A DNA stretch of 64,000 nucleotides from NCBI GenBank assembly GCA_021405315.1, contig QWIH01000009.1:7059-71058 (forward strand). The letters run 5' to 3'. The DNA is from Leptolyngbya sp. PLA1 (GTDB lineage Bacteria; Planctomycetota; Phycisphaerae; Phycisphaerales; UBA1924). Below the pieces are notes generated by a model that ran no database searches, was not told the DNA's origin, and saw nothing but the letters and a program-made list of their open reading frames with translations. Shown here piece by piece: positions 12,274-45,951 of the stretch; the stretch's first letter is position 1, and the number at the start of each line of letters is the position of its first letter. The translations under genes and the position numbers were made by a program.

Positions 12274-13389
12274 ATGGGCATCTATGACCGCGAGTACGTC
12301 TTCCGCAAGCCGGCACGGATGGGCCGGCCCGGGCTCTTTTCGGTCAACACGTGGATCATCCTGATCAACGCGGCGGTGTTCTTCGGCGGATTCATGTTCA
12401 AGAACCTGAGTGTGCCGGTGTACATCGACACGCGGGTGGCGGACCCGTCGGTGCCGGCGACGGTGAGGCTGGAGCCCGCCGGGCCCTACCTGAGCACGAG
12501 AGGGGCGGGGGTGGGGTCTCCGGCGACGACGCGGGAAGTGCACACCCCGGGGGCCGAGCTGGCCAAGGCCGTGGTCCGCGCGGACACGAAGGAGCCGGTG
12601 AACGGGATTGCCCGGTACAGGGTGGAGTACCCGTTCCACGCGTACGGGCATTTCTCGACGTACACCCTGTTCAAGCTGGAAGTGTGGCGGGCGGTCACGT
12701 TCCAGTTTCTGCACGCGAGCATCACGCACCTGCTGTTCAACATGCTGGGGCTGTATTTCTTCGGCGGGATGGTCGAGCAGTATCTCGGCTCCAAGCGGTA
12801 CCTGGCGTTCTACCTGGTGTGCGGCATCGCGGGGGCGCTGGCGTATCTCCTGTTGAACGTGGCGGGGTACGTGGCGCTGGATTTCTTCGGCACCACGAAG
12901 ATTCCCGGTCTGCTGTACAACGCCTCGACCACGCCCCTGGTGGGTGCCTCGGCGGGGGTCTTCGGGGTGATCCTTGCCTGCGCGTTCATCTCGCCCAACT
13001 CGATCGTGCAGCTCATCTTCCCGCCGATTCCCATGAAGCTGAGGACGATGGCGTTCGTGTACGTGGGGATCGCGGTGCTGACGGTGCTGTTCGGGGGGCA
13101 CAACGCGGGCGGCGAAGCGGCGCACCTGGGCGGGGCGGTCGCGGGCTTCTTCCTCATCCGCAGGCCTCACCTGCTGCGGGATTTCTTCGACGTGTTCACG
13201 GACTCGCGGAAGAAGAGCCCGGAGCGGCCGCCGGAGGTGCGGGCGACGGCGGCTCGCCCCCCCGTGCGTGATGAAGAGGTGGACCGCATCCTGGCGAAGG
13301 TATCGGCGGAGGGGCTCCACAGCCTGACGGCGGCGGAGCGGGAGTCGCTCCGGCGGGCGTCGGAGTCCAGGCGGGCGTCCGGTTCGTGA
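12274..13389 (+). CDS. Rhomboid intramembrane serine protease with DUF6576-like tail
   Basis: WR motif, FLHASITHLLFNM, GASAG catalytic Ser, AHLGG catalytic His; tail EVDRILAKVSAEGLHSLTAAERE. Confidence 0.9.
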   Translation: MGIYDREYVFRKPARMGRPGLFSVNTWIILINAAVFFGGFMFKNLSVPVYIDTRVADPSVPATVRLEPAGPYLSTRGAGVGSPATTREVHTPGAELAKAVVRADTKEPVNGIARYRVEYPFHAYGHFSTYTLFKLEVWRAVTFQFLHASITHLLFNMLGLYFFGGMVEQYLGSKRYLAFYLVCGIAGALAYLLLNVAGYVALDFFGTTKIPGLLYNASTTPLVGASAGVFGVILACAFISPNSIVQLIFPPIPMKLRTMAFVYVGIAVLTVLFGGHNAGGEAAHLGGAVAGFFLIRRPHLLRDFFDVFTDSRKKSPERPPEVRATAARPPVRDEEVDRILAKVSAEGLHSLTAAERESLRRASESRRASGS

Positions 13390-14606
13390 GCGCGATCTCC
13401 TTCCAGATCACGGCGAGGTCCGCCAGTTCCGGGGCGAGGGTCGGGAGGGTGGCGACGCCTCACGGCTGGTTCGACACGCCGGCGTTCATGCCCGTGGGGA
13501 CGCGCGGGTCGGTGAAGGGCATCCACCCGAGCGACGTTGCGGCGACGGGAGCACAGATTCTCCTGAACAACACGTACCACCTGCTGCTGAGGCCGGGTCC
13601 GGAGCTGATCAGCCGCCTGGGGGGCGTGCATCGGTTCATGAACTGGGATGGACCGATCCTGACGGATTCGGGCGGGTACCAGGCGTTCTCGCTGGCGGAC
13701 GCGAACTCGGTGGACGACGACGGGGTGACGTTCAAGAGCCATGTGGACGGGGCGAGCGTTCGACTGACGCCGGAGCGGGCGATCGAGGTGCAGAACCTGC
13801 TGGGCCCGGACATCATCATGGCGTTTGATGATTGCCCGCCGCCGATTGCGGAGGATGATCCCGGGGCACCGGTGGACCCGAGGCGTACGGCGGCGGCGAG
13901 GCGTGACTCGAGGCGGGGCGTGTACGACCACGGGGCGCGGCTGGATGTCGCCAACGAGCGGACGATCCGATGGCTGGAGCGGTGCGTGAGGGCGCATCGG
14001 AGGCCTGACGAGCAGGCGTTGTTCGGGATCGTTCAGGGCGGGGCGGACCTGGGGCGGCGGGAGTGGTGTGCCGCGAGGGTGTGCGGGTTGGATCTTCCCG
14101 GGTATGCGATCGGGGGTGTGGCGGTGGGGGAGCCGCCGGAGGAGATCGCGCGGATCGTGCGGCACACGGCGCCGCTGTTGCCGGGGGACCGCCCGCGATA
14201 CTTGATGGGGGTCGGGTACGAGCGGGACCTTCTGGCGGCGGTTCGGGCAGGGGTGGACATGTTCGATTGCGTGCTGCCGACGCGGAACGGGCGGAACGCG
14301 AACGCGTTCACGCGGACGGGGCAGGTGCGGCTGCGGAACCTGAGGTTTGCGGACGATCCGCTGCCGATTGAGCCTGGGTGCGACTGTGCGGCGTGTGATC
14401 CCGGGCGGCACGGATGGAGGGGGCACTTCTCGCGGGCGTACATTCGGCACCTGTTCCAATGCGAGGAGATGCTCGGGCCGATCCTCGTCAGCCTGCATAA
14501 CCTACGCCACTTCCAGCGGTTCATGGCCGAGCTCCGCCAGACGATCACGACGGACGACTGGGAGGGCTTTGTCACCCGCTACCCCGTGGCGGCTCCTGGG
14601 CTCTAG
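13386..14606 (+). CDS. tgt: tRNA-guanine transglycosylase
   Basis: TPAFMPVGT, NTYHL, LTDSGGYQ, GIVQGG, GGVAVGE, DMFDCVLPTRNGRN, Zn site CDCAAC...HN. Confidence 0.96.
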   Translation: MSAISFQITARSASSGARVGRVATPHGWFDTPAFMPVGTRGSVKGIHPSDVAATGAQILLNNTYHLLLRPGPELISRLGGVHRFMNWDGPILTDSGGYQAFSLADANSVDDDGVTFKSHVDGASVRLTPERAIEVQNLLGPDIIMAFDDCPPPIAEDDPGAPVDPRRTAAARRDSRRGVYDHGARLDVANERTIRWLERCVRAHRRPDEQALFGIVQGGADLGRREWCAARVCGLDLPGYAIGGVAVGEPPEEIARIVRHTAPLLPGDRPRYLMGVGYERDLLAAVRAGVDMFDCVLPTRNGRNANAFTRTGQVRLRNLRFADDPLPIEPGCDCAACDPGRHGWRGHFSRAYIRHLFQCEEMLGPILVSLHNLRHFQRFMAELRQTITTDDWEGFVTRYPVAAPGL

Positions 14607-14672
14607 CCCGCCGTGCCTCCCGGGGCGTTCCCGGGGGTTGCCCAAGGTGATTTCTTCTTGAGACTGACACAC

Positions 14673-15125
14673 ATGATGATGAACGAGTACGTCGCGACGA
14701 TCGCGTTCCAGGATGGCGCCGCACCGATTCAGGCCGTGGGGGTTCCGGGGGCGCAGGCCCCGACCGTGACGGGGGCGCCGGGGGCACCCGGAGGAGCACC
14801 GGCGGCGCAGGGCCCCGGGGGGATGGGGGCGATCTTCTGGCTGCTGCCTGCGATGCTGCTGGTGATGGTGCTGCTGCAGGTCACGGGCGCGCGGAAGGAG
14901 AAGAAGCGTCGGGCGGAGATGATGGCGCAGATCAAGAAGGGCGAGAAGGTTCAGACGGCGGGGGGGCTGATCGGCACGATCATGGAAGTCGGGGAGACGG
15001 ACGTGGTGCTTCGGCTCGAGGAGGGCCGGGCGCGGGTGCTGAAGTCGTCGATCGCGCTGGTGACGGGGGCGAAGCCCGCGAACGGCACGGTGGAGGCGAA
15101 GCCGGACGTGAAGGCGACCGTCTGA
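14673..15125 (+). CDS. yajC: Preprotein translocase subunit YajC (150 aa, with G/P/A-rich N-terminal extension)
   Basis: TM helix then KKGEKVQTAGGLIGTI; tgt-yajC-secD synteny. Confidence 0.9.
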   Translation: MMMNEYVATIAFQDGAAPIQAVGVPGAQAPTVTGAPGAPGGAPAAQGPGGMGAIFWLLPAMLLVMVLLQVTGARKEKKRRAEMMAQIKKGEKVQTAGGLIGTIMEVGETDVVLRLEEGRARVLKSSIALVTGAKPANGTVEAKPDVKATV

Positions 15126-15200
15126 GCCCGCCGGAGAACGAGGATCGCCCCGAAACCTGACCAGGCCCCGCCAACCGCCATACGGCCCGCTGCTGCTGCC

Positions 15201-18200
15201 ATGAACTCGATCATCCGCAACTCGATCTTTACCATCGTCGCCACCGCGCTGGCGCTTCTGTGCCTTCTGGTCCCGAAATCACCGATCCGGCTGGGCAAGG
15301 ACCTGCAGGGCGGGGTGAGCCTGGTGTACGGGATCAGCATCGAATCCGGCGAGAACGCGGACGAGGTGATCCCGAAGGTGATCGACGTGCTGAAGCAGCG
15401 CGTGGACCCGAACGGGCTGACCGAGATCTCGATCGTGCGTCAGGGACGGGATCGCATCGAGATCACGATGCCCCTTCCGAACGACAAGGTGAAGCGGCTG
15501 AAGCAGGAGTTCGAGTCGCAACTGGCGAACCTGACACAGACGCAGCTCACGGGCTCTCGCGTGGATCAGGCGCTGGCGCTCGCGGCGGCGGAGCGAGAGG
15601 CGGCGCTGTCGGCGATGGCGGGGGGCCCGGGGCCGAGGCTCGAGGCGCTGAAGTCGCTGGCGTCGGCGTACGACCTGATGAGGCAGAAGCAGGAGGCGAT
15701 CCGGGCGGCGCAGGATCCCGCGGCCCGCGAGGCGCTGGCGCCGGAGGTGGCGCAGGCCGAGATCGCGTTCGAGACGGCCCGCTCGGCGGCGCTCACACGG
15801 ACGGTGGCGGCGGAGGACATCCGGCGCGTGGTGCTGGCGTCGACGCGGACAAGGACGATCCGCGATGGCAAGGAGGTCATCACGCTCGACAGCCCGCGCC
15901 AGGTGGCTGAGAGGGCGCTGTACCAACAGTTCCCGGAATCCAAGGAGGCGATCGACCGCGCGCTGGCGGCGTGGGCGGCGTACTCGGAGGAGCGGGGCGG
16001 TCTTGACGACCCGCAGGACCTGATCCGGATGCTGAAGGGCGCGGGCGTGCTGTCGTTCCGGATCACGGTGGACCCCGGGGCGCACCCGCAGGAGCAGCGG
16101 CTCCGGGCGGAGGTCGCGGAACTGGGGCCGGCGAACGTGAAGGCCTCCGACGCCCGGTGGATGAAGATCAACTCCATCGAGGGGTGGATCAAGACCAAGG
16201 CGGACGCGGACGCGTTCGCGAGCGACCCGGGGTACTCGCGTGTGTTCTTCGGGCGGATGGGCTTCGTGGTGGAGCCCTACGCGGGCGACTACTACATGCT
16301 GTGCTGGGACACGGCGACGGCGCGTCTGACGCAGCACGAGGGCGCGTGGGCGGTGTCGAGGGCGTTCCCGGGTGCGGACAACATCGGTCGTCCGGCGATC
16401 CACTTCAACATGAACGCGCCGGGCTCGGTGAAGCTGGGCAACCTGACCCGGGCGCACGTGAACGACAAGATGGCGGTGCTGCTGGACGACGAGGTGTACA
16501 CGGCGCCGAGGCTCAACTCGGAGATTTCGTCGGGCGGGATCATCGAGGGCGACTTCGACCCCTCGGAGATCCAGTACATCGTGCGGGTGCTGGGCGCGGG
16601 CTCCCTGCAGGGCAAGCTGACGCCGGAGCCCATCAGCATCAACTCGGTGGGCCCGGACCTGGGCGCCGACAACCTCGACAAGGGCCTGCTCTGCGGGATC
16701 TACTCGATCATCATCGTCGCGGCGTTCATGATCCTGTACTACTTCGGGTGCGGGGCGGCGGCGGTGTTCGCGCTGGCCGTCAACTCGGTGCTGATCATGG
16801 GCGCGATGGCGCTCTCCAAGGCGGCGTTCACGATGCCGGGCATCGCGGGTGTGATCCTGACGTTCGGCATGGCGGTGGACTCGAACGTGCTGATCTACGA
16901 GCGCATGCGTGAGGAGCTGTCGCGTGGCGCGGACCTGCGGACGGCGGTGAGGCTGGGCTTTGACCGGGCGCTGGCGTCGATCGTGGACGGCAACGTGACG
17001 AACCTGATCGTGTGCGTGGTGCTGTACCAGTTCGGCACGCCGGAGATCAGGGGCTTTGCGATCACGATGGGCATCGGCGTGGTGTCGACGCTCTTCGCGG
17101 CGCTGATCGTGACGCGGCTGCCCCTGGACCTGGCGGTGGCGATGGGATTCAAGAGTGCGCCGATGCTGCCCAGCGTCATCCCCGGGCTGCAGCGGATGCT
17201 GACCCCGACGGTCGGATGGATCAGGTTGCGGTGGATCTTCATCGGCATCTCGGCGGTGTATGTCGGGCTCGGGCTGTTCGCGGTGTTCTACCAGGGTCCG
17301 AAGATGCTGGACACGGAGTTCGTGGGCGGCACGGCGGTCACGCTGGAGTTCAAGGCGGGCGCCGACGGGCAGCGGCTGACGCTCACGCGAGAGGACGTGC
17401 AGAAGCGGGTGCAGAAGGTCGCCGAGGCGGCGCCGGAGGGGACGGAGCTTCGGAACCTCTCCAACGCGGACGTCATCCCGATCAACCCTGCGGACGACGG
17501 GGTGACATCGGGGCGGTTCACGCTGAAGGTTCGGACCAAGAACCTGACGGGGCCTGAGGTTCTGGAGGCGGTGATTCCAGCGTTCCAGGACCTGCTGCCC
17601 GACAACCCGAGGCTGACGTTCAAGGGCGACGATGAGACGCAGAGGCAGACGGTGCCGGCGTATCCGATCGACAGGCCCGTGCTGGGGCCGAACATCGATC
17701 GTCCGGAGTGGCGGGAGGACGTGCGGAAGTTCCTGGGAGGGGTTGCGATCGTGGCGGAGGGGATCACGCCGCCGCAGTCGCTGGAGGCCCTGCAGGCGCG
17801 GTGGCAGGCGGAGCGGCAGTCCTCCACGTTCGCGGACACGCTCGGGCGCACGACGGGCGTGGTGATTCTGGACGGGACGGAGTCGGAGGTGAAGTCGGCG
17901 GTGTTCCTGGTGAAGGATGACCAGGCGACGTTCTTCGACAATGAGGGGCGGTGGGATGCGCAGGTCCGCTCGAGGGAGTGGTCGCTGCTGCACGATGCGC
18001 TGACGCGGGCACGGCTGCCGGCGAGCGTGCAGTCGTTCAGCCCGTCGATCGCGAGCACGTTCCAGCGGGACGCGCTCCTGGCGACGGTGGTGAGCTTCAT
18101 CTTCATCGGCATCTACATCTGGATCCGGTTCAAGACGCCGCGGTACTCGATCGCGGCGATCGTGGCGCTGGTGCACGACGTGCTGACGGTTCTGGGGCTG

Positions 18201-18644
18201 CTTGCGCTGGCGGAGATTCTGTGCGAGCACCCGGCGACGCGGGACTTTGCGTACTCGATCGGGCTGCTGCCGTTCAAGATCGACCTGAACACGGTGGCGG
18301 CGCTGCTGACGATCGCGGGGTATTCGCTGAACGACACGGTGGTGGTGATGGACCGGATCCGCGAGAATCGGGGCAAGCTGCCGGCGGCGACGGCGCGGAT
18401 CATCGACGACTCGGTGAACCAGACGTTCAGCCGCACGATCATCACGGGCGGGACGACGATGCTCTCGTGCCTGATTCTGTACACCTACGGCGGCGAGGGG
18501 ATGCGGGCGTTCGCGTTCTGCCTGCTGACGGGGCTGATCGTGGGAACGTACTCGTCGGTGGCGGTGGCGGCGCCGATCGTGTGGTCTCGGAAGTTCGACC
18601 GGGAGTTGGCCGGGATGGGCGGGATCGTGGCCCGGCCCGCGTGA
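15201..18644 (+). CDS. secDF: Fused protein translocase subunit SecDF (1147 aa)
   Basis: LGKDLQGG, MAVLLDD, GMAVDSNVLIYERMREE (SecD); EFVGG, GYSLNDTVVVMDRIREN, SRTIIT (SecF). Confidence 0.96.
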   Translation: MNSIIRNSIFTIVATALALLCLLVPKSPIRLGKDLQGGVSLVYGISIESGENADEVIPKVIDVLKQRVDPNGLTEISIVRQGRDRIEITMPLPNDKVKRLKQEFESQLANLTQTQLTGSRVDQALALAAAEREAALSAMAGGPGPRLEALKSLASAYDLMRQKQEAIRAAQDPAAREALAPEVAQAEIAFETARSAALTRTVAAEDIRRVVLASTRTRTIRDGKEVITLDSPRQVAERALYQQFPESKEAIDRALAAWAAYSEERGGLDDPQDLIRMLKGAGVLSFRITVDPGAHPQEQRLRAEVAELGPANVKASDARWMKINSIEGWIKTKADADAFASDPGYSRVFFGRMGFVVEPYAGDYYMLCWDTATARLTQHEGAWAVSRAFPGADNIGRPAIHFNMNAPGSVKLGNLTRAHVNDKMAVLLDDEVYTAPRLNSEISSGGIIEGDFDPSEIQYIVRVLGAGSLQGKLTPEPISINSVGPDLGADNLDKGLLCGIYSIIIVAAFMILYYFGCGAAAVFALAVNSVLIMGAMALSKAAFTMPGIAGVILTFGMAVDSNVLIYERMREELSRGADLRTAVRLGFDRALASIVDGNVTNLIVCVVLYQFGTPEIRGFAITMGIGVVSTLFAALIVTRLPLDLAVAMGFKSAPMLPSVIPGLQRMLTPTVGWIRLRWIFIGISAVYVGLGLFAVFYQGPKMLDTEFVGGTAVTLEFKAGADGQRLTLTREDVQKRVQKVAEAAPEGTELRNLSNADVIPINPADDGVTSGRFTLKVRTKNLTGPEVLEAVIPAFQDLLPDNPRLTFKGDDETQRQTVPAYPIDRPVLGPNIDRPEWREDVRKFLGGVAIVAEGITPPQSLEALQARWQAERQSSTFADTLGRTTGVVILDGTESEVKSAVFLVKDDQATFFDNEGRWDAQVRSREWSLLHDALTRARLPASVQSFSPSIASTFQRDALLATVVSFIFIGIYIWIRFKTPRYSIAAIVALVHDVLTVLGLLALAEILCEHPATRDFAYSIGLLPFKIDLNTVAALLTIAGYSLNDTVVVMDRIRENRGKLPAATARIIDDSVNQTFSRTIITGGTTMLSCLILYTYGGEGMRAFAFCLLTGLIVGTYSSVAVAAPIVWSRKFDRELAGMGGIVARPA

Positions 18645-40706: not shown

Positions 40707-42209
40707 TTATCGGCGTGCTTCCTGGAGGGCAATGAGGGAGTACGCGGTGATGAGGACGGGATCGTTCTCCATCCAGCGGTCGTCGACGGGTCTGAAGGAG
40801 CCGTCGGGTTGCTGGAGGCCCGTGAGCCGTGCGACGAGGTCCGCCCGCCAATCGCGTGGGGCGCCGCCGTCGGGCGAGGGAACGGAGTCGAGGCCGGAAG
40901 CGCTGAGTGCTCGGGCGAAGACGAGGAAGTAGTAGTAGAGCCCGTCGGATCCGACGCCGGGGTTCTCTTCGAGGGTGTAGTTCCGGGCGATCCAGCCCTG
41001 CGCCGCCTTGACGCGTGGGTCGTTGGCGGTCAGCCCGGCGTAGAGGTACGACTTGAAGCCGGAGTAGGACATGGAGCCATAGGCCCGGAGGCGGCTCTCA
41101 CCCTGCCAGTGGGCCACGGGCGTGGCGACGAGGGAGCCGGGATCGACGGAGTCACGGAACGCCGCGAGCACGAACTCCGATGCGGCGATGGGGTCGGGGG
41201 TGGCCGTTCTGACTTCGAAGGCGGCGCTCTTGCCACCGGACATTCCCGGTCCGAGGAGGACGATGAAGTCCTGCCTGGAGCCGCCGCTCGCGAGAACCTG
41301 CTTCTGCTTCTCGAGGAGTGCGGTGCACTCGTCGCGGGACAGCGTCATGGGAGCGCCGTCCGCGCCGGGCTTGAGGGAGAAGGTGACCGAGGCGCCGGGC
41401 GGTCCGGAGAGCGACTCCGCGATCTCTCCGGCGAAGGACTGTCCGCTGCCGACGCGGTCCTTGTTCTCGCTGGTTGCGTAGACGAACCCGCCCTGAGTGG
41501 AACCCTTGGCGTAGGGCATGTCGTTGGCGTCGCCGGAGGGGAGGTCGAGCATCTGGCAGCGGCGGAGGAAGACGAGCGCGCGTTGGAAGGCGGCGTCATT
41601 CTCGGGCAGGCCGGAGGCGTGCAGGGCCTCGATGGCGAAGCTGGAGTTGGAGAGATCAGGGCGGCCGTGGTTGCCGTAGCCCCACGCGCCGTAGAACGGG
41701 TCGTCCCTGCCCACGACTCTTGCGGTTTCACCGGACTCGTAGGCCACGGCGCCCTCGCCGAACTGCAGGGTCTTGAGATACGCCTGCGCCTTGGCCACGG
41801 CGGCGGTGATCCTCGCGTCCGGGTTCGGCACCTTCGCGAGCGCGGTGAGCGCGATCGCGGTGTTGTACGTGGGGAGGATGCGGTCGTAGATGCCGCCATT
41901 CTCCTGCTGATGAGAGAGGAGGAAGGTCACGGCCCGCGCGATGGCGGGGTCGTTCAACGAGGCGCCCGGGCGGTCGAGAAGCCCCTGGAGGGCGAGAGCG
42001 GTGATCGCGGGGAAGACCGGACGACCGGGGGAAACGCCCCAGCCGCCCGTCGCCGGGTCTTGCCTGGAGAGCAGGAAGGCCGCGGCCTTGTCGGCGGCTT
42101 CGGCGCGGGCGTCGGCGGGATGTGGATGGGTCGGCGGCGCATCGCCCGGCTGCGTGAGGGCGGCTGGGCTTGAGAGAGACATTAGGAAGGCGAGCGCGAT
42201 TGGGTGCAT
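40707..42209 (-). CDS. Secreted prenyltransferase/squalene-hopene-cyclase-repeat protein with ~100-aa internal insert
   Basis: Signal peptide; QW-like repeats LLSRQDPATGGW, LLSHQQENGGI, LTGLQQPDGSF; RAYGSMSYSGFKSYLYAG, DPRVKAA, GLYYY. Confidence 0.82.
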   Translation of the reverse strand: MHPIALAFLMSLSSPAALTQPGDAPPTHPHPADARAEAADKAAAFLLSRQDPATGGWGVSPGRPVFPAITALALQGLLDRPGASLNDPAIARAVTFLLSHQQENGGIYDRILPTYNTAIALTALAKVPNPDARITAAVAKAQAYLKTLQFGEGAVAYESGETARVVGRDDPFYGAWGYGNHGRPDLSNSSFAIEALHASGLPENDAAFQRALVFLRRCQMLDLPSGDANDMPYAKGSTQGGFVYATSENKDRVGSGQSFAGEIAESLSGPPGASVTFSLKPGADGAPMTLSRDECTALLEKQKQVLASGGSRQDFIVLLGPGMSGGKSAAFEVRTATPDPIAASEFVLAAFRDSVDPGSLVATPVAHWQGESRLRAYGSMSYSGFKSYLYAGLTANDPRVKAAQGWIARNYTLEENPGVGSDGLYYYFLVFARALSASGLDSVPSPDGGAPRDWRADLVARLTGLQQPDGSFRPVDDRWMENDPVLITAYSLIALQEARR

Positions 42210-43236: not shown

Positions 43237-44775
43237 CTACTTCAGGCCATAGACCTGCGCGGCCTTCTTGCGGAGGTGCCGGAGGAGCGGCTCGGCGCTG
43301 AGAGGCGCGCCCGTGACACGGGTGCAGAGTTCCGCGGCCCGGAATCGCCTCCCGTGGCGATGGATGTTCTTCACGAGCCAGGCCTTGAGCTGGGCAAAGT
43401 CACCCTTGGCGACCTGGGCGGAGAGGTCGGGGATGTCCTGATTGACCTTCTCCCAGAACTGCGCGGCGTAGAGGTTGCCGAGCGTGTACGTGGGGAAGTA
43501 GCCGATGAGCCCGGCGGACCAGTGCACGTCCTGCAGGCAGCCCCGTGCGGCGTCCGGCACCTTCAGGCCGAGGTAGGCGTGGTAGCGGTCGTTCCACTCC
43601 TTCGGGATCTGCTTGACCGTCATGGAGCCGGAGAAGAGCGCCCGCTCGATCTCGAAGCGGATCATGACGTGCATGTTGTACGTGCCCTCGTCGGCCTCCA
43701 CCCGGATGAACGAGGGCCTGATGGTGTTGGTCGCGGCGAAGAAGTCCTTCGCGTCGTACTTGGAGAGGGCCTTGCCCACGTGCTTCCGGCTCTTGGGGAG
43801 GAGCCACTTCCAGAACGACTTCGATCGGCCGACGAAGTTCTCCCACATGCGGCTCTGGCTCTCGTGGATGCCGAGGGAAACAGCCTCTGCGAGGGGCTGG
43901 CCCGGGTGGGTGGCCTTGGGGAGCCCCTGCTCGTAGAGGCCGTGGCCCATCTCGTGCAGCGTGCCGTAGAGGGCATCGGTGAACCGCGACTCGCGGTAGC
44001 GCGTGGTGAGGCGGGTGTCGCCGGGTCCGAAGCCGTCGCAGAAGGGGTGGGTGGTTGTGTCGAGGCGACCGGCGTCGAGATCAAAGCCCATCTGCCGGAT
44101 GACCCAGAGCCCGAGGGCGTGCTGGCGATCGGGCTCGATCTCCACGTCGAGGCACTTGGTGCTCACCTTGGTCCCGGAGGCGCGTACCTCCTCGAGCAGG
44201 GTCGTGAGGCTCCGGCGCAGCGGCGTGAAGGTGGCTTCGACCTGCGAAGCGCGCATCTCCGGCTCGTAGAGGTCCAGCAGCGCGTCGTAGCGCTCTCCAC
44301 CGGCGGGGACGCCGAGGCAGTCGGCCTTGCGGCCGGTGAGCGTGAGCACCTTCTCGAGCATCGGGGCGAAGGACGCGAAGTCGCTCCGCTCGCGTGCGGA
44401 CTTCCACGCCTGCTGGGCCAGGGTCGTGGTCTTCGCGAGTTCCTCGACGAGGTCGCCCGGGAGCTTCGTGGCAAGGTCGTAGTCCCGCTTCAGTTCGCGC
44501 AGGTTCGCGGCGATGGCGGGGTCGCCGGTCAGTTCGGTGTCGGCGAGGCACTGCTGGATCAGTTCGCCCAGCCGAGGGGAGGTGTGCCGTTCGTGCACCA
44601 GCCCGACGATCACCGCCGTCTGGTCGCTGCGCATGGGGTAGGCGGCGGGGGGCATGTAGACCTCCTGGTCCCAGGAGAGGAGCCTCGACATGCCCTCGAG
44701 GAGCGAGGTCTTGCGGACGTACTCGCGGAGTTCGGTGTAGCGGGGGTGCTCGGCTCGGGCGGGCGGCTTGGTCAT
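43237..44775 (-). CDS. Carboxypeptidase M32 (Taq-like)
   Basis: HPF, HEMGH, HESQSR, IRVEADE, GCLQDVHW, GYFPTY. Confidence 0.95.
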   Translation of the reverse strand: MTKPPARAEHPRYTELREYVRKTSLLEGMSRLLSWDQEVYMPPAAYPMRSDQTAVIVGLVHERHTSPRLGELIQQCLADTELTGDPAIAANLRELKRDYDLATKLPGDLVEELAKTTTLAQQAWKSARERSDFASFAPMLEKVLTLTGRKADCLGVPAGGERYDALLDLYEPEMRASQVEATFTPLRRSLTTLLEEVRASGTKVSTKCLDVEIEPDRQHALGLWVIRQMGFDLDAGRLDTTTHPFCDGFGPGDTRLTTRYRESRFTDALYGTLHEMGHGLYEQGLPKATHPGQPLAEAVSLGIHESQSRMWENFVGRSKSFWKWLLPKSRKHVGKALSKYDAKDFFAATNTIRPSFIRVEADEGTYNMHVMIRFEIERALFSGSMTVKQIPKEWNDRYHAYLGLKVPDAARGCLQDVHWSAGLIGYFPTYTLGNLYAAQFWEKVNQDIPDLSAQVAKGDFAQLKAWLVKNIHRHGRRFRAAELCTRVTGAPLSAEPLLRHLRKKAAQVYGLK

Positions 44776-44831: not shown

Positions 44832-45951
44832 TCAGGCACGTGGACGTTCCTGCTCGGCGCGGCGGCGCTGCAGTTCGGCATTGATGAAGTCCGCGATCTC
44901 GCCGCGGAGCACGGCCTCGTAGTTCCTGGACTCGTGGTTGGTGCGGTGGTCCTTGACGCGGTTGTCGTAGAAGACGTAGGAGCGGATCTGGGTGCCCCAG
45001 CCCTGTTCTAGGGCGCCGCCCTGGGCAGCGGCGATCTCTCGCTCACGCTTCTCCTCTTCGATCTGCTCGAGCTTGGCCATGAGGATGGTGAGGGCCTGCT
45101 TGCGGTTCTGGGGCTGGTCGCGGTAGGTGGAGGCGACGACCTGAAGGCCGGTGGGGATGTGGGTGACGCGGATGGCGCTGGCGACCTTGTTGACGTTCTG
45201 GCCGCCGGGACCGCTGGCGCGGACGAAGGGCTCGATCTTGAGGTCCTTCTCGGGAACGTTGAGTTCGGTCTCTTCGAACTCCGGCGCGACCTCGACGGTG
45301 GCGAAGGAGGTCTGGCGTTTTCCCTGGGCGTTGAAGGGGCTGACGCGTGCGAGGCGGTGCGTGCCTCGCTCGCACTTGAGATAGCCGAAGGCGTAGGGCC
45401 CGCGGATGTGGAGGGTCACGGAGTCGATGCCGACTTCGGCGCCGAAGCCCTTGTCGACTTCCTCCATCTCGAAGCCCATCTTCTCGCAGTAGTAGATGTA
45501 CATGCGGAGGAGCATGTCGGCCCAGTCGTTGGCCTCGGTGCCGCCCACGCCGGCGGAGATGGTGAGGAAGCAGTTTCGGTGGTCGTGCCGCCCGGAGAGG
45601 AGGGAGCGCAGTTCGAGGCGCTCCATGCGTGCGACAAGATCGAAGAGCTTGGCGTCGGCCTCGGCGAGCATGTCCTTGTCGCCGGACTCCTTGTAGAACT
45701 CGTAGGCGGTCTTGGCGTCCGCGAGGTCGGTCACGATGGAACGGAGGGGGTCGAGCTGGGCCTTGAGGAGCTTGACCTCCCCGACGATCTTCCGGGCGCG
45801 GCCCTGGTCCTCCCAGAACGACGCGTCGTTCATGAGTGCTTCGAGTTCGCGCTGGCGGACGTCCCGCTGCTCGTAGTTAAAGAGAGTCGCGGATCGTCAA
45901 GATCCGCGCCTCGAGATCCGAGATCACCGGCTGATGGGCGTCGTAGTGCAT
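44832..45951 (-). CDS. prfB: Peptide chain release factor 2, expressed by +1 programmed frameshift (about 372 aa)
   Basis: 24-codon ORF (MHYDAHQPVISDLEARILTIRDSL) ends CTT TAA C; the +1 frame continues NYEQRDVRQ...; RVSPF anticodon motif and GGQ present. Confidence 0.95.
45876..45882 (-). other. prfB: prfB +1 frameshift site CTT-TAA-C
   Basis: Direct reading of the reverse complement; frame arithmetic joins the two ORFs. Confidence 0.9.

Follow-up and report, generated by a model that had tools for sequence, protein, structure and literature searches.

The stretch of DNA analysed here (the window) comprises 64,000 nucleotides from the assembly of Leptolyngbya sp. PLA1, a member of the Phycisphaerales in the GTDB lineage (contig QWIH01000009.1, positions 7,059 to 71,058). 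Its list of open reading frames includes a minus-strand gene for a 500-residue protein of the prenyltransferase/squalene-oxidase-repeat family (40707..42209, stop codon included in the coordinates). Within this protein we identified an insert of 102 residues. The evidence strongly supports a genuine and ancient homology of this insert to the planctomycete form of P4, a periplasmic domain of SecF. The insert comprises one full β1-α1-β2-β3-α2-β4 unit. The explanation that we favour as a whole, namely a P4-derived insert in an exported toroid protein, with SecDF as the donor and with the acquired domain serving as an added interaction platform or lid, is in our view probable.

The insert spans residues 269 to 370 (41100..41405, minus strand), between the segments SFAGEIAESLS (from residue 258) and ESRLRAYGSM (from residue 371), in agreement with the initial annotation, which had reported ~100 extra residues at this place. 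The short loop that it expected there was found as well. Thus, 114 of the 120 closest homologs have the insert, and the other six, of 409-425 residues, have a tight turn at the exact site. A scan of one genome per species yielded the same two forms, with the insert in 5 of the best 80 loci (L001-L005) and the turn in the remaining 75. In the insert-less orthologs, the site corresponds to a hairpin turn of ~9 residues (...EETLDDGTKVSRLRAYGSM). A few insert-bearing homologs, P0090 (597 residues), P0057 (548 residues) and P0066 (550 residues), harbour a nested insertion of 40-65 further residues after helix α2, which brings their inserts to 149-175 residues.

The similarity of the insert to SecDF can be seen in direct comparisons of the two proteins of the window. 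An ungapped match between SVTFSLKPGADGAPMTLSRDEC in the insert and AVTLEFKAGADGQRLTLTREDV at the start of the SecF periplasmic domain (SecDF residues 712-733, positions 17334-17399), with 10 of 22 residues identical, had been noticed before and was reproduced. The later blocks that had been lined up by eye are contained in the one clear BLASTP alignment of the insert with the 1147-residue SecDF, which covers SecDF residues 710-797 (34.3 bits, E 1e-6, 25/88 identical residues). Significance against shuffled sequences, suggested earlier as a check, was high: the Smith-Waterman score is 85, whereas 2000 shuffled versions of the insert scored 34.9 ± 4.7 and at most 60, i.e. z = 10.6 and a Gumbel p of ~1e-6.

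Profile comparisons gave far stronger signals. Profiles were built from 57 aligned inserts and from the P4 region of 119 full-length SecDF homologs. Full-length proteins were used because a homolog search with the P4 segment only gave two matches, the segment being so poorly conserved that the word index fails. The insert profile aligned with that of the Phycisphaerae SecF P4 over 92 columns with a probability of 98.5% (E 1.6e-15), and with an independent alignment of 23 sequences covering the seventh transmembrane segment (TM7) and the first part of P4 over 97 columns with a probability of 98.9% (E 2.6e-17; hhalign). The real scores were 91-99, versus 13.0 ± 2.6 in 100 column shuffles (maximum 25.6) and 13.3 for the reversed insert profile. 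In hhalign, insert positions 9-98 are registered onto SecDF residues 710-806, which are the only significant match of the insert profile in the whole SecDF alignment. The two sequences stay in register across all six secondary-structure elements. The invariant glycine of the inserts, G272 (G9 of the insert alignment), corresponds to the second G of the GG motif of SecDF, and only that glycine has been retained.

The insert profile was also run with HMMER, exhaustively, against a library of 1.84 billion representative proteins, which yielded 34 proteins at E <= 1e-3. They are members or fragments of the toroid family, followed by SecDF/SecF proteins of 1150-1205 residues matched at about positions 720-848 (best E 1.2e-9), and by shorter proteins. 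All ten non-toroid matches that were tested have the Pfam SecD_SecF_C domain, and the short matches that remain are SecDF or toroid-family fragments. The other two matches, P0255 and P0267, were judged to be spurious, as they consist of multi-stretch, low per-domain repeat matches. With these two set aside, the insert has, as judged by profile similarity, no relatives outside its own family that could be detected in the library other than the P4 regions of SecDF/SecF. The insert hidden Markov model matched the beginning of P4 in 127 of the 127 long SecDFs examined, with a median of 29.9 bits, and it matched the window's own SecDF with 37.0 bits at residues 710-803.

The SecDF fusion of the window is encoded on the plus strand (15201..18644), downstream of tgt and yajC. 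It matches the Pfam models SecD_SecF_C, SecDF_P1_head and SecD_1st as well as the SecDF chains 3aqp, 5xan and 5mg3_F of the PDB, and its closest homolog (93% identity) is named Phycisphaerales SecD. The segment homologous to the insert, which we call P4a, is the ferredoxin-like unit with which the SecF periplasmic region P4 begins (residues 710-806; 17325..17618 on the plus strand with the whole GG motif, residues 709-710). P4a begins at the GG motif, directly after TM7. Since this motif and the first strand align with Thermus thermophilus SecDF (3AQP) and Escherichia coli SecF, the start of P4a represents the ancestral start of P4. Past TM7, the GG motif and β1, nothing recognizable was found when the P4a profile was compared with PDB sequences or with E. 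coli SecF and SecD, and none of the Pfam matches of the window's SecDF falls on P4a.

The SecF periplasmic region of Phycisphaerae SecDFs is ~235 residues long, versus ~100 in E. coli. P4a is followed by a segment, P4b (residues 807-945; 17619-18035), that is kept among the 119 SecDF homologs and that resembled neither P4a, nor the insert, nor any Pfam family in the searches run. We considered whether P4b (residues 813-945) might be a second copy of P4a and rejected this idea, its hhalign scores of 13-15 against P4a and the insert being background; for the same reason, a weak BLASTP match of the insert at SecDF 871-905 (E 0.2) was dropped. The SecD P1 region (15201-16900) is also much enlarged, with ~480 residues before the end of the P1-head match at residue 470, in a protein to be compared with the T. 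thermophilus SecDF of 741 residues in total. This region holds an Ala/Glu-rich helical stretch at about residues 100-260 that has no Pfam match. The gene order tgt-yajC-secDF (13386-18644, plus strand) is the same as in E. coli K-12, tgt-yajC-secD-secF.

AlphaFold2 models are consistent with the insert having the fold of P4. Predicted from the insert alignment alone, it adopts the order β-α-β-β-α-β (E9-16, H29-44, E52-56, E67-72, H77-91 and E98-102), with a predicted local distance difference test (pLDDT) score of 87.3 and a predicted template modelling (pTM) score of 0.80. In the model of the full protein, the elements are β1 272-279, α1 292-307, β2 315-319, β3 330-335, α2 340-354 and β4 361-365. 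Both models and the hhalign registration onto SecDF delimit a ferredoxin-like/porter-domain core at residues 272-365 (41115..41396, minus strand). Its topology agrees with the published β1-α1-β2-β3-α2-β4 order and four-stranded antiparallel sheet of SecF P4, a classic porter-domain fold (PMC8277102). The insert is predicted to be carried at the tip of a surface β-hairpin, between strands 262-268 and 369-374.

The protein that hosts the insert belongs to a large family, with at least 1304 homologs in the database, the closest 120 of which were examined. It is matched by the Pfam models SQHop_cyclase_N and SQHop_cyclase_C, with scores barely over the cut-offs (32.1 bits for PF13249 and 29.3 bits for PF13243). 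As modelled by AlphaFold2 (pLDDT 92.1, pTM 0.89; 12 helices plus the insert), it is one single-domain (α/α)6 toroid of ~400 residues besides the insert. Its N-terminal part (residues 33-268; 41406..42113, minus strand) closes in the hairpin strand 262-268 with the invariant E265, and its C-terminal part (residues 371-500; 40710..41099, minus strand) opens with the rest of the return strand 369-374, followed by the invariant RLRAYGSM.Y.GFKSY. The most conserved residues of the family border the hairpin: QGGF.Y precedes it, E262 and E265 lie in the first of its strands, and RLRAYGSM.Y.GFKSY follows it; those at its base are E262, E265, Y377, G378, Y382 and G384. Because these residues flank the hairpin, the insert adjoins the probable functional face of the toroid, a conserved face that also includes D185 and R183.

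The first ~22 residues (MHPIALAFLMSLSSPAALTQPG; 42144..42209, minus strand), which by eye form a hydrophobic N-terminus, resemble a signal peptide, and hydrophobic N-termini are present in all aligned homologs. Residues 1-16 are unstructured in the model, with pLDDT values below 50. The AlphaFold2 model is that of a soluble toroid and shows no transmembrane helices apart from this segment, and we predict from the N-terminal sequence that the protein is exported to the periplasm.

Foldseek searches with the host protein returned remote matches to squalene-hopene cyclase (SHC), to the single-domain proteins 8PAJ and 8PAK, to MstE and AprG, and to some GH76 and PL10 toroids. For SHC, 8PAK and MstE, the probability was 1.00, with 10-16% identity and E of 3e-5 to 1e-3. 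No DxDD or D.D[DE] string occurs in the host, and DxDD of any kind is found in only 5 of the 120 closest homologs, at positions that are not conserved. Furthermore, it scores 34.9, 34.7 and 21.2 bits with the NCBIfam squalene/oxidosqualene and hopene cyclase models, versus cut-offs of 851, 322.7 and 431.1, and it is a single toroid, versus the two-domain βγ architecture of ~630 residues. Because the catalytic DxDD motif of class II cyclases is missing, we do not file the protein among them, and the label of 'enzyme' given to it in the initial annotation is unproven.

The insert is an old acquisition. Over 82 aligned codons, the insert and the SecDF segment share 45.5% nucleotide identity, and blastn found no significant match between them, which argues for an old copy, as had been proposed, rather than a recent duplication of DNA. 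The accompanying claim that shared residues use different synonymous codons holds for 12 of the 25 identical residues; the other 13 have the same codon.

A survey of orthologs, as had been suggested, showed that the insert is optional and that it marks a subset of the family in the Phycisphaerae (Phycisphaerales and Tepidisphaeraceae labels). The 75 insert-less loci include all matches labelled Planctomycetia, Planctomycetaceae, Isosphaeraceae or Verrucomicrobiota, and since these outgroups lack the insert, the insert-less state is ancestral. Two loci first taken as insert-bearing from the lengths of their proteins, L011 and L017, have no insert at this site. The toroid gene has a gene for an M32 (Taq-type) carboxypeptidase (43237-44775, minus strand, in the window) next to it, both in the window and in 20 of the 80 related loci, irrespective of the insert. 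The peptidase gene adjoins insert-bearing forms in the window, L001 and L084, and insert-less forms in 19 loci and L086. The two forms are thus orthologs at one locus and not distant paralogs. The adjacency of these genes could reflect mere conserved synteny or a functional link.

These distributions suggest a direction of transfer. P4a has kept the ancestral position of SecF P4 and its GG motif, and it is present in 127/127 long SecDFs; the insert has a narrow distribution. From this we infer that the SecDF gene was the donor and the toroid gene the recipient. Since neither P4a past β1 nor the insert is recognizable in comparisons with E. coli or PDB SecDFs, the source was probably a SecDF of the planctomycete type, and the transfer would have taken place within the Phycisphaerae after planctomycete P4 had diverged from that of other phyla. 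The shuffling of a SecF-type domain into a putatively exported (α/α)6 protein, as first proposed, is thus supported by the profile comparison, the search of 1.84e9 proteins, the predicted P4 topology and the insert-less orthologs at the same locus.

Nevertheless, several observations weigh against this interpretation. When the insert model was compared with the PDB using Foldseek, no SecDF chain was found in the top 50 matches. These consist only of generic ferredoxin-like proteins, i.e. dimeric α+β barrels, PII-like proteins, ribosomal S6 and M20 dimerisation domains, with a best E of 2e-3 and TM (template modelling) scores <=0.51. The fold check that had been suggested is thus positive for the predicted P4 topology and negative for the recovery of SecDF structures, and the modelled structure supports the fold class, not SecF specifically. 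With PDB sequences, the insert profile gave weak matches to designed ferredoxin folds only, the solved SecDFs remaining undetected, and it did not detect E. coli SecF or SecD either (SecF score 13.6). As far as sequence comparisons show, the link of the insert to P4 is to planctomycete SecDFs only. How the insert packs on the toroid is deduced solely from the high pLDDT and pTM of the model. Lastly, a neighbour-joining tree calculated from the toroid columns mixes the forms with and without the insert, and its internal branches are very short there. This sequence-based tree fits one gain followed by several losses and several events alike.

The absence of SecDF chains from the Foldseek matches and the failure to match canonical SecF sequences might be taken as signs that two unrelated ferredoxin-like domains resemble each other by chance or convergence, all the more as this fold is very common. 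We consider this explanation effectively refuted. Profile-profile E values of 1e-15 to 1e-17 place the real alignment ~30 standard deviations over the column shuffles, and the register holds over six elements, including the glycine of the GG motif. Moreover, despite the abundance of ferredoxin-like domains, the search of 1.84e9 proteins returned only SecDF P4 outside the insert's own family, the two spurious matches aside. That the insert is a discrete block, present or absent at one exact site, might also point to an artefact of assembly, frameshift or gene calling, or to a mobile or selfish, intein-like element. The homolog survey refutes this, leaving it a negligible probability: the block is in frame and present in 114/120 closest homologs from many independent assemblies, with conserved motifs and an average mutual identity of 41%, a divergence that shows long-term maintenance. 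It is also predicted to fold with confidence, alone and in context, it contains no repeats or intein motifs, and it matches no Pfam model. A reversed direction, with planctomycete P4a derived from the toroid insert, or both from a lost third source, would fit the unusually large size of planctomycete P4 (~235 versus ~100 residues) and its lack of detectable similarity to canonical P4 past β1. We find it very improbable, because P4a opens with the ancestral GG motif and β1 of SecF at the ancestral place after TM7, and because every one of the 127 long SecDFs examined has it; only some members of one toroid family have the insert, which is missing from the outgroups of that family. In addition, no third family was found in the search of 1.84e9 proteins.

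The remaining explanation to be weighed concerns function. The initial annotation suggested that the insert docks the toroid on SecDF/YajC, for instance by adding its sheet to the P1 base and P4, or that it binds unfolded exported polypeptides. The homology of the insert to P4 is solid, the toroid protein and SecDF P4 are both predicted to be periplasmic, and the homologous part of SecDF normally pairs edge-to-edge with the pseudo-symmetric P1 base (PMC8277102, PMC5974789). Together, the P4 and P1-base sheets make up eight strands, arranged as one sheet or, in the Super-F form, as a barrel (PMC8277102, PMC5974789). Docking of a toroid enzyme or binding protein by β-sheet pairing, on the periplasmic base of SecDF or on another sheet like that of P4/P1-base, nevertheless seems improbable to us, as does the binding of unfolded chains. 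The P4 that SecDF carries in cis already fills the pairing edge of the P1 base, and preprotein binding has been ascribed to the P1 head of SecDF rather than to P4 (PMC5974789). The residues common to the insert and P4a are mostly at core and turn positions, i.e. structural, and the insert is lacking in most of the family and in all outgroups, which function without it. The toroid gene also lacks genomic linkage to sec genes: it is 22 kb from secDF in the window, and elsewhere its neighbours are housekeeping genes.

We propose that the insert most likely provides the toroid with an additional platform for interactions in the periplasm, or with a lid, beside its functional face. Such a role is proposed because the P4-derived domain, modelled as rigid, would be held beside the conserved toroid face, on a hairpin that has the family's most conserved residues at its base. 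The interaction surface might be the exposed four-stranded sheet, which in SecDF mediates the pairing of P4 with the P1 base. How the insert would act can be ranked tentatively. It may act in cis, providing the toroid's own site with a lid or with a platform for the ligand, which is the likeliest option but still a tentative one. Homodimerisation by sheet pairing that mimics the P1-base/P4 interaction is conceivable, if rather unlikely. The binding of another periplasmic partner, SecDF included, appears unlikely, and a purely structural or neutral insert would seem more unlikely still.

The neighbours of the toroid gene in the window are rlmN and the genes for a β-carbonic anhydrase, the M32 peptidase and prfB, and housekeeping genes surround it in other genomes as well. 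On the basis of these contexts, an operon link with the sec genes was rejected. The β-class carbonic anhydrase (NF011765; 42170-43222, plus strand) has an N-terminal extension of ~100 residues with a hydrophobic, signal-like stretch, which suggests that it might be exported. The gene for release factor 2, prfB (44832-45833, minus strand), has a match to the TIGR00020 profile that begins only at position 32. The programmed +1 frameshift of prfB is well known, and an N-terminal part encoded in another frame would produce this pattern.

Compared with the SecF P4 domains of known structure, those of T. thermophilus (3AQP/5YHF), Deinococcus radiodurans (5XAN) and E. coli (5MG3), which have the porter-domain fold of RND proteins, the insert has the same topology, a predicted periplasmic location and a start at the glycine of the GG motif, and its profile is significantly similar to the planctomycete version. 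However, P4 is located between TM7 and TM8 of a 12-TM SecDF/RND protein, whereas the insert is found in a loop of a soluble toroid and has no P1-base partner in cis; no similarity of its sequence to the P4 domains of solved structure or to that of E. coli could be detected either, and no SecDF chain appeared in its Foldseek top 50. MzrA (PDB 4PWU), a soluble periplasmic protein with a porter-domain-like fold (cited in PMC8277102), represents a precedent for this fold outside transporters, in a periplasmic protein not involved in transport. Unlike the insert, which is a domain within a domain with demonstrable sequence homology to SecF, MzrA is a small stand-alone protein, and neither the sequence nor the fold searches returned it. 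As for the toroids of terpenoid cyclases and prenyltransferases (2SQC, the myxobacterial single-domain 'SHC' 8PAJ/8PAK, MstE 6SBE, and PF13243/PF13249 members), the host shares their repeat motifs and, with its 12 helices, their single toroid, but it is very remote from them, lacks DxDD and has a putative signal peptide. No ferredoxin-like insert was seen in the matched structures.

The fusion had been presented as undescribed. We found no description of it in the literature searched on 8PAJ/8PAK, on the protein family and on SecF-domain fusions, and none of the Pfam models searched corresponds to it; the insert alone matched none. Thus, porter-domain folds in soluble periplasmic proteins are known as a kind, and this architecture with SecF ancestry appears to be new.

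The insert represents a sequence family with no Pfam match. Its definition could improve the annotation of the planctomycete SecDFs of ~1150 residues and of many 'prenyltransferase/squalene oxidase repeat' proteins of the Planctomycetes-Verrucomicrobia-Chlamydiae (PVC) group. If it is merely a structural decoration, the finding stays an evolutionary curiosity. If docking were true, the activity of the toroid would be physically coupled to the exit of the Sec translocon, and the protein would be the first soluble client or partner to mimic a domain of a translocon subunit. Of the periplasmic parts of SecDF, P4 is understood least. With a soluble relative that folds well, and with natural insert-less controls at the same locus, there is a tractable way to study which surfaces P4 uses. 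This is a clean, datable case of domain capture, in which a loop of an unrelated, soluble and probably periplasmic protein received a copy of a transporter ectodomain, and the insert shows that P4 can fold and persist away from SecDF.

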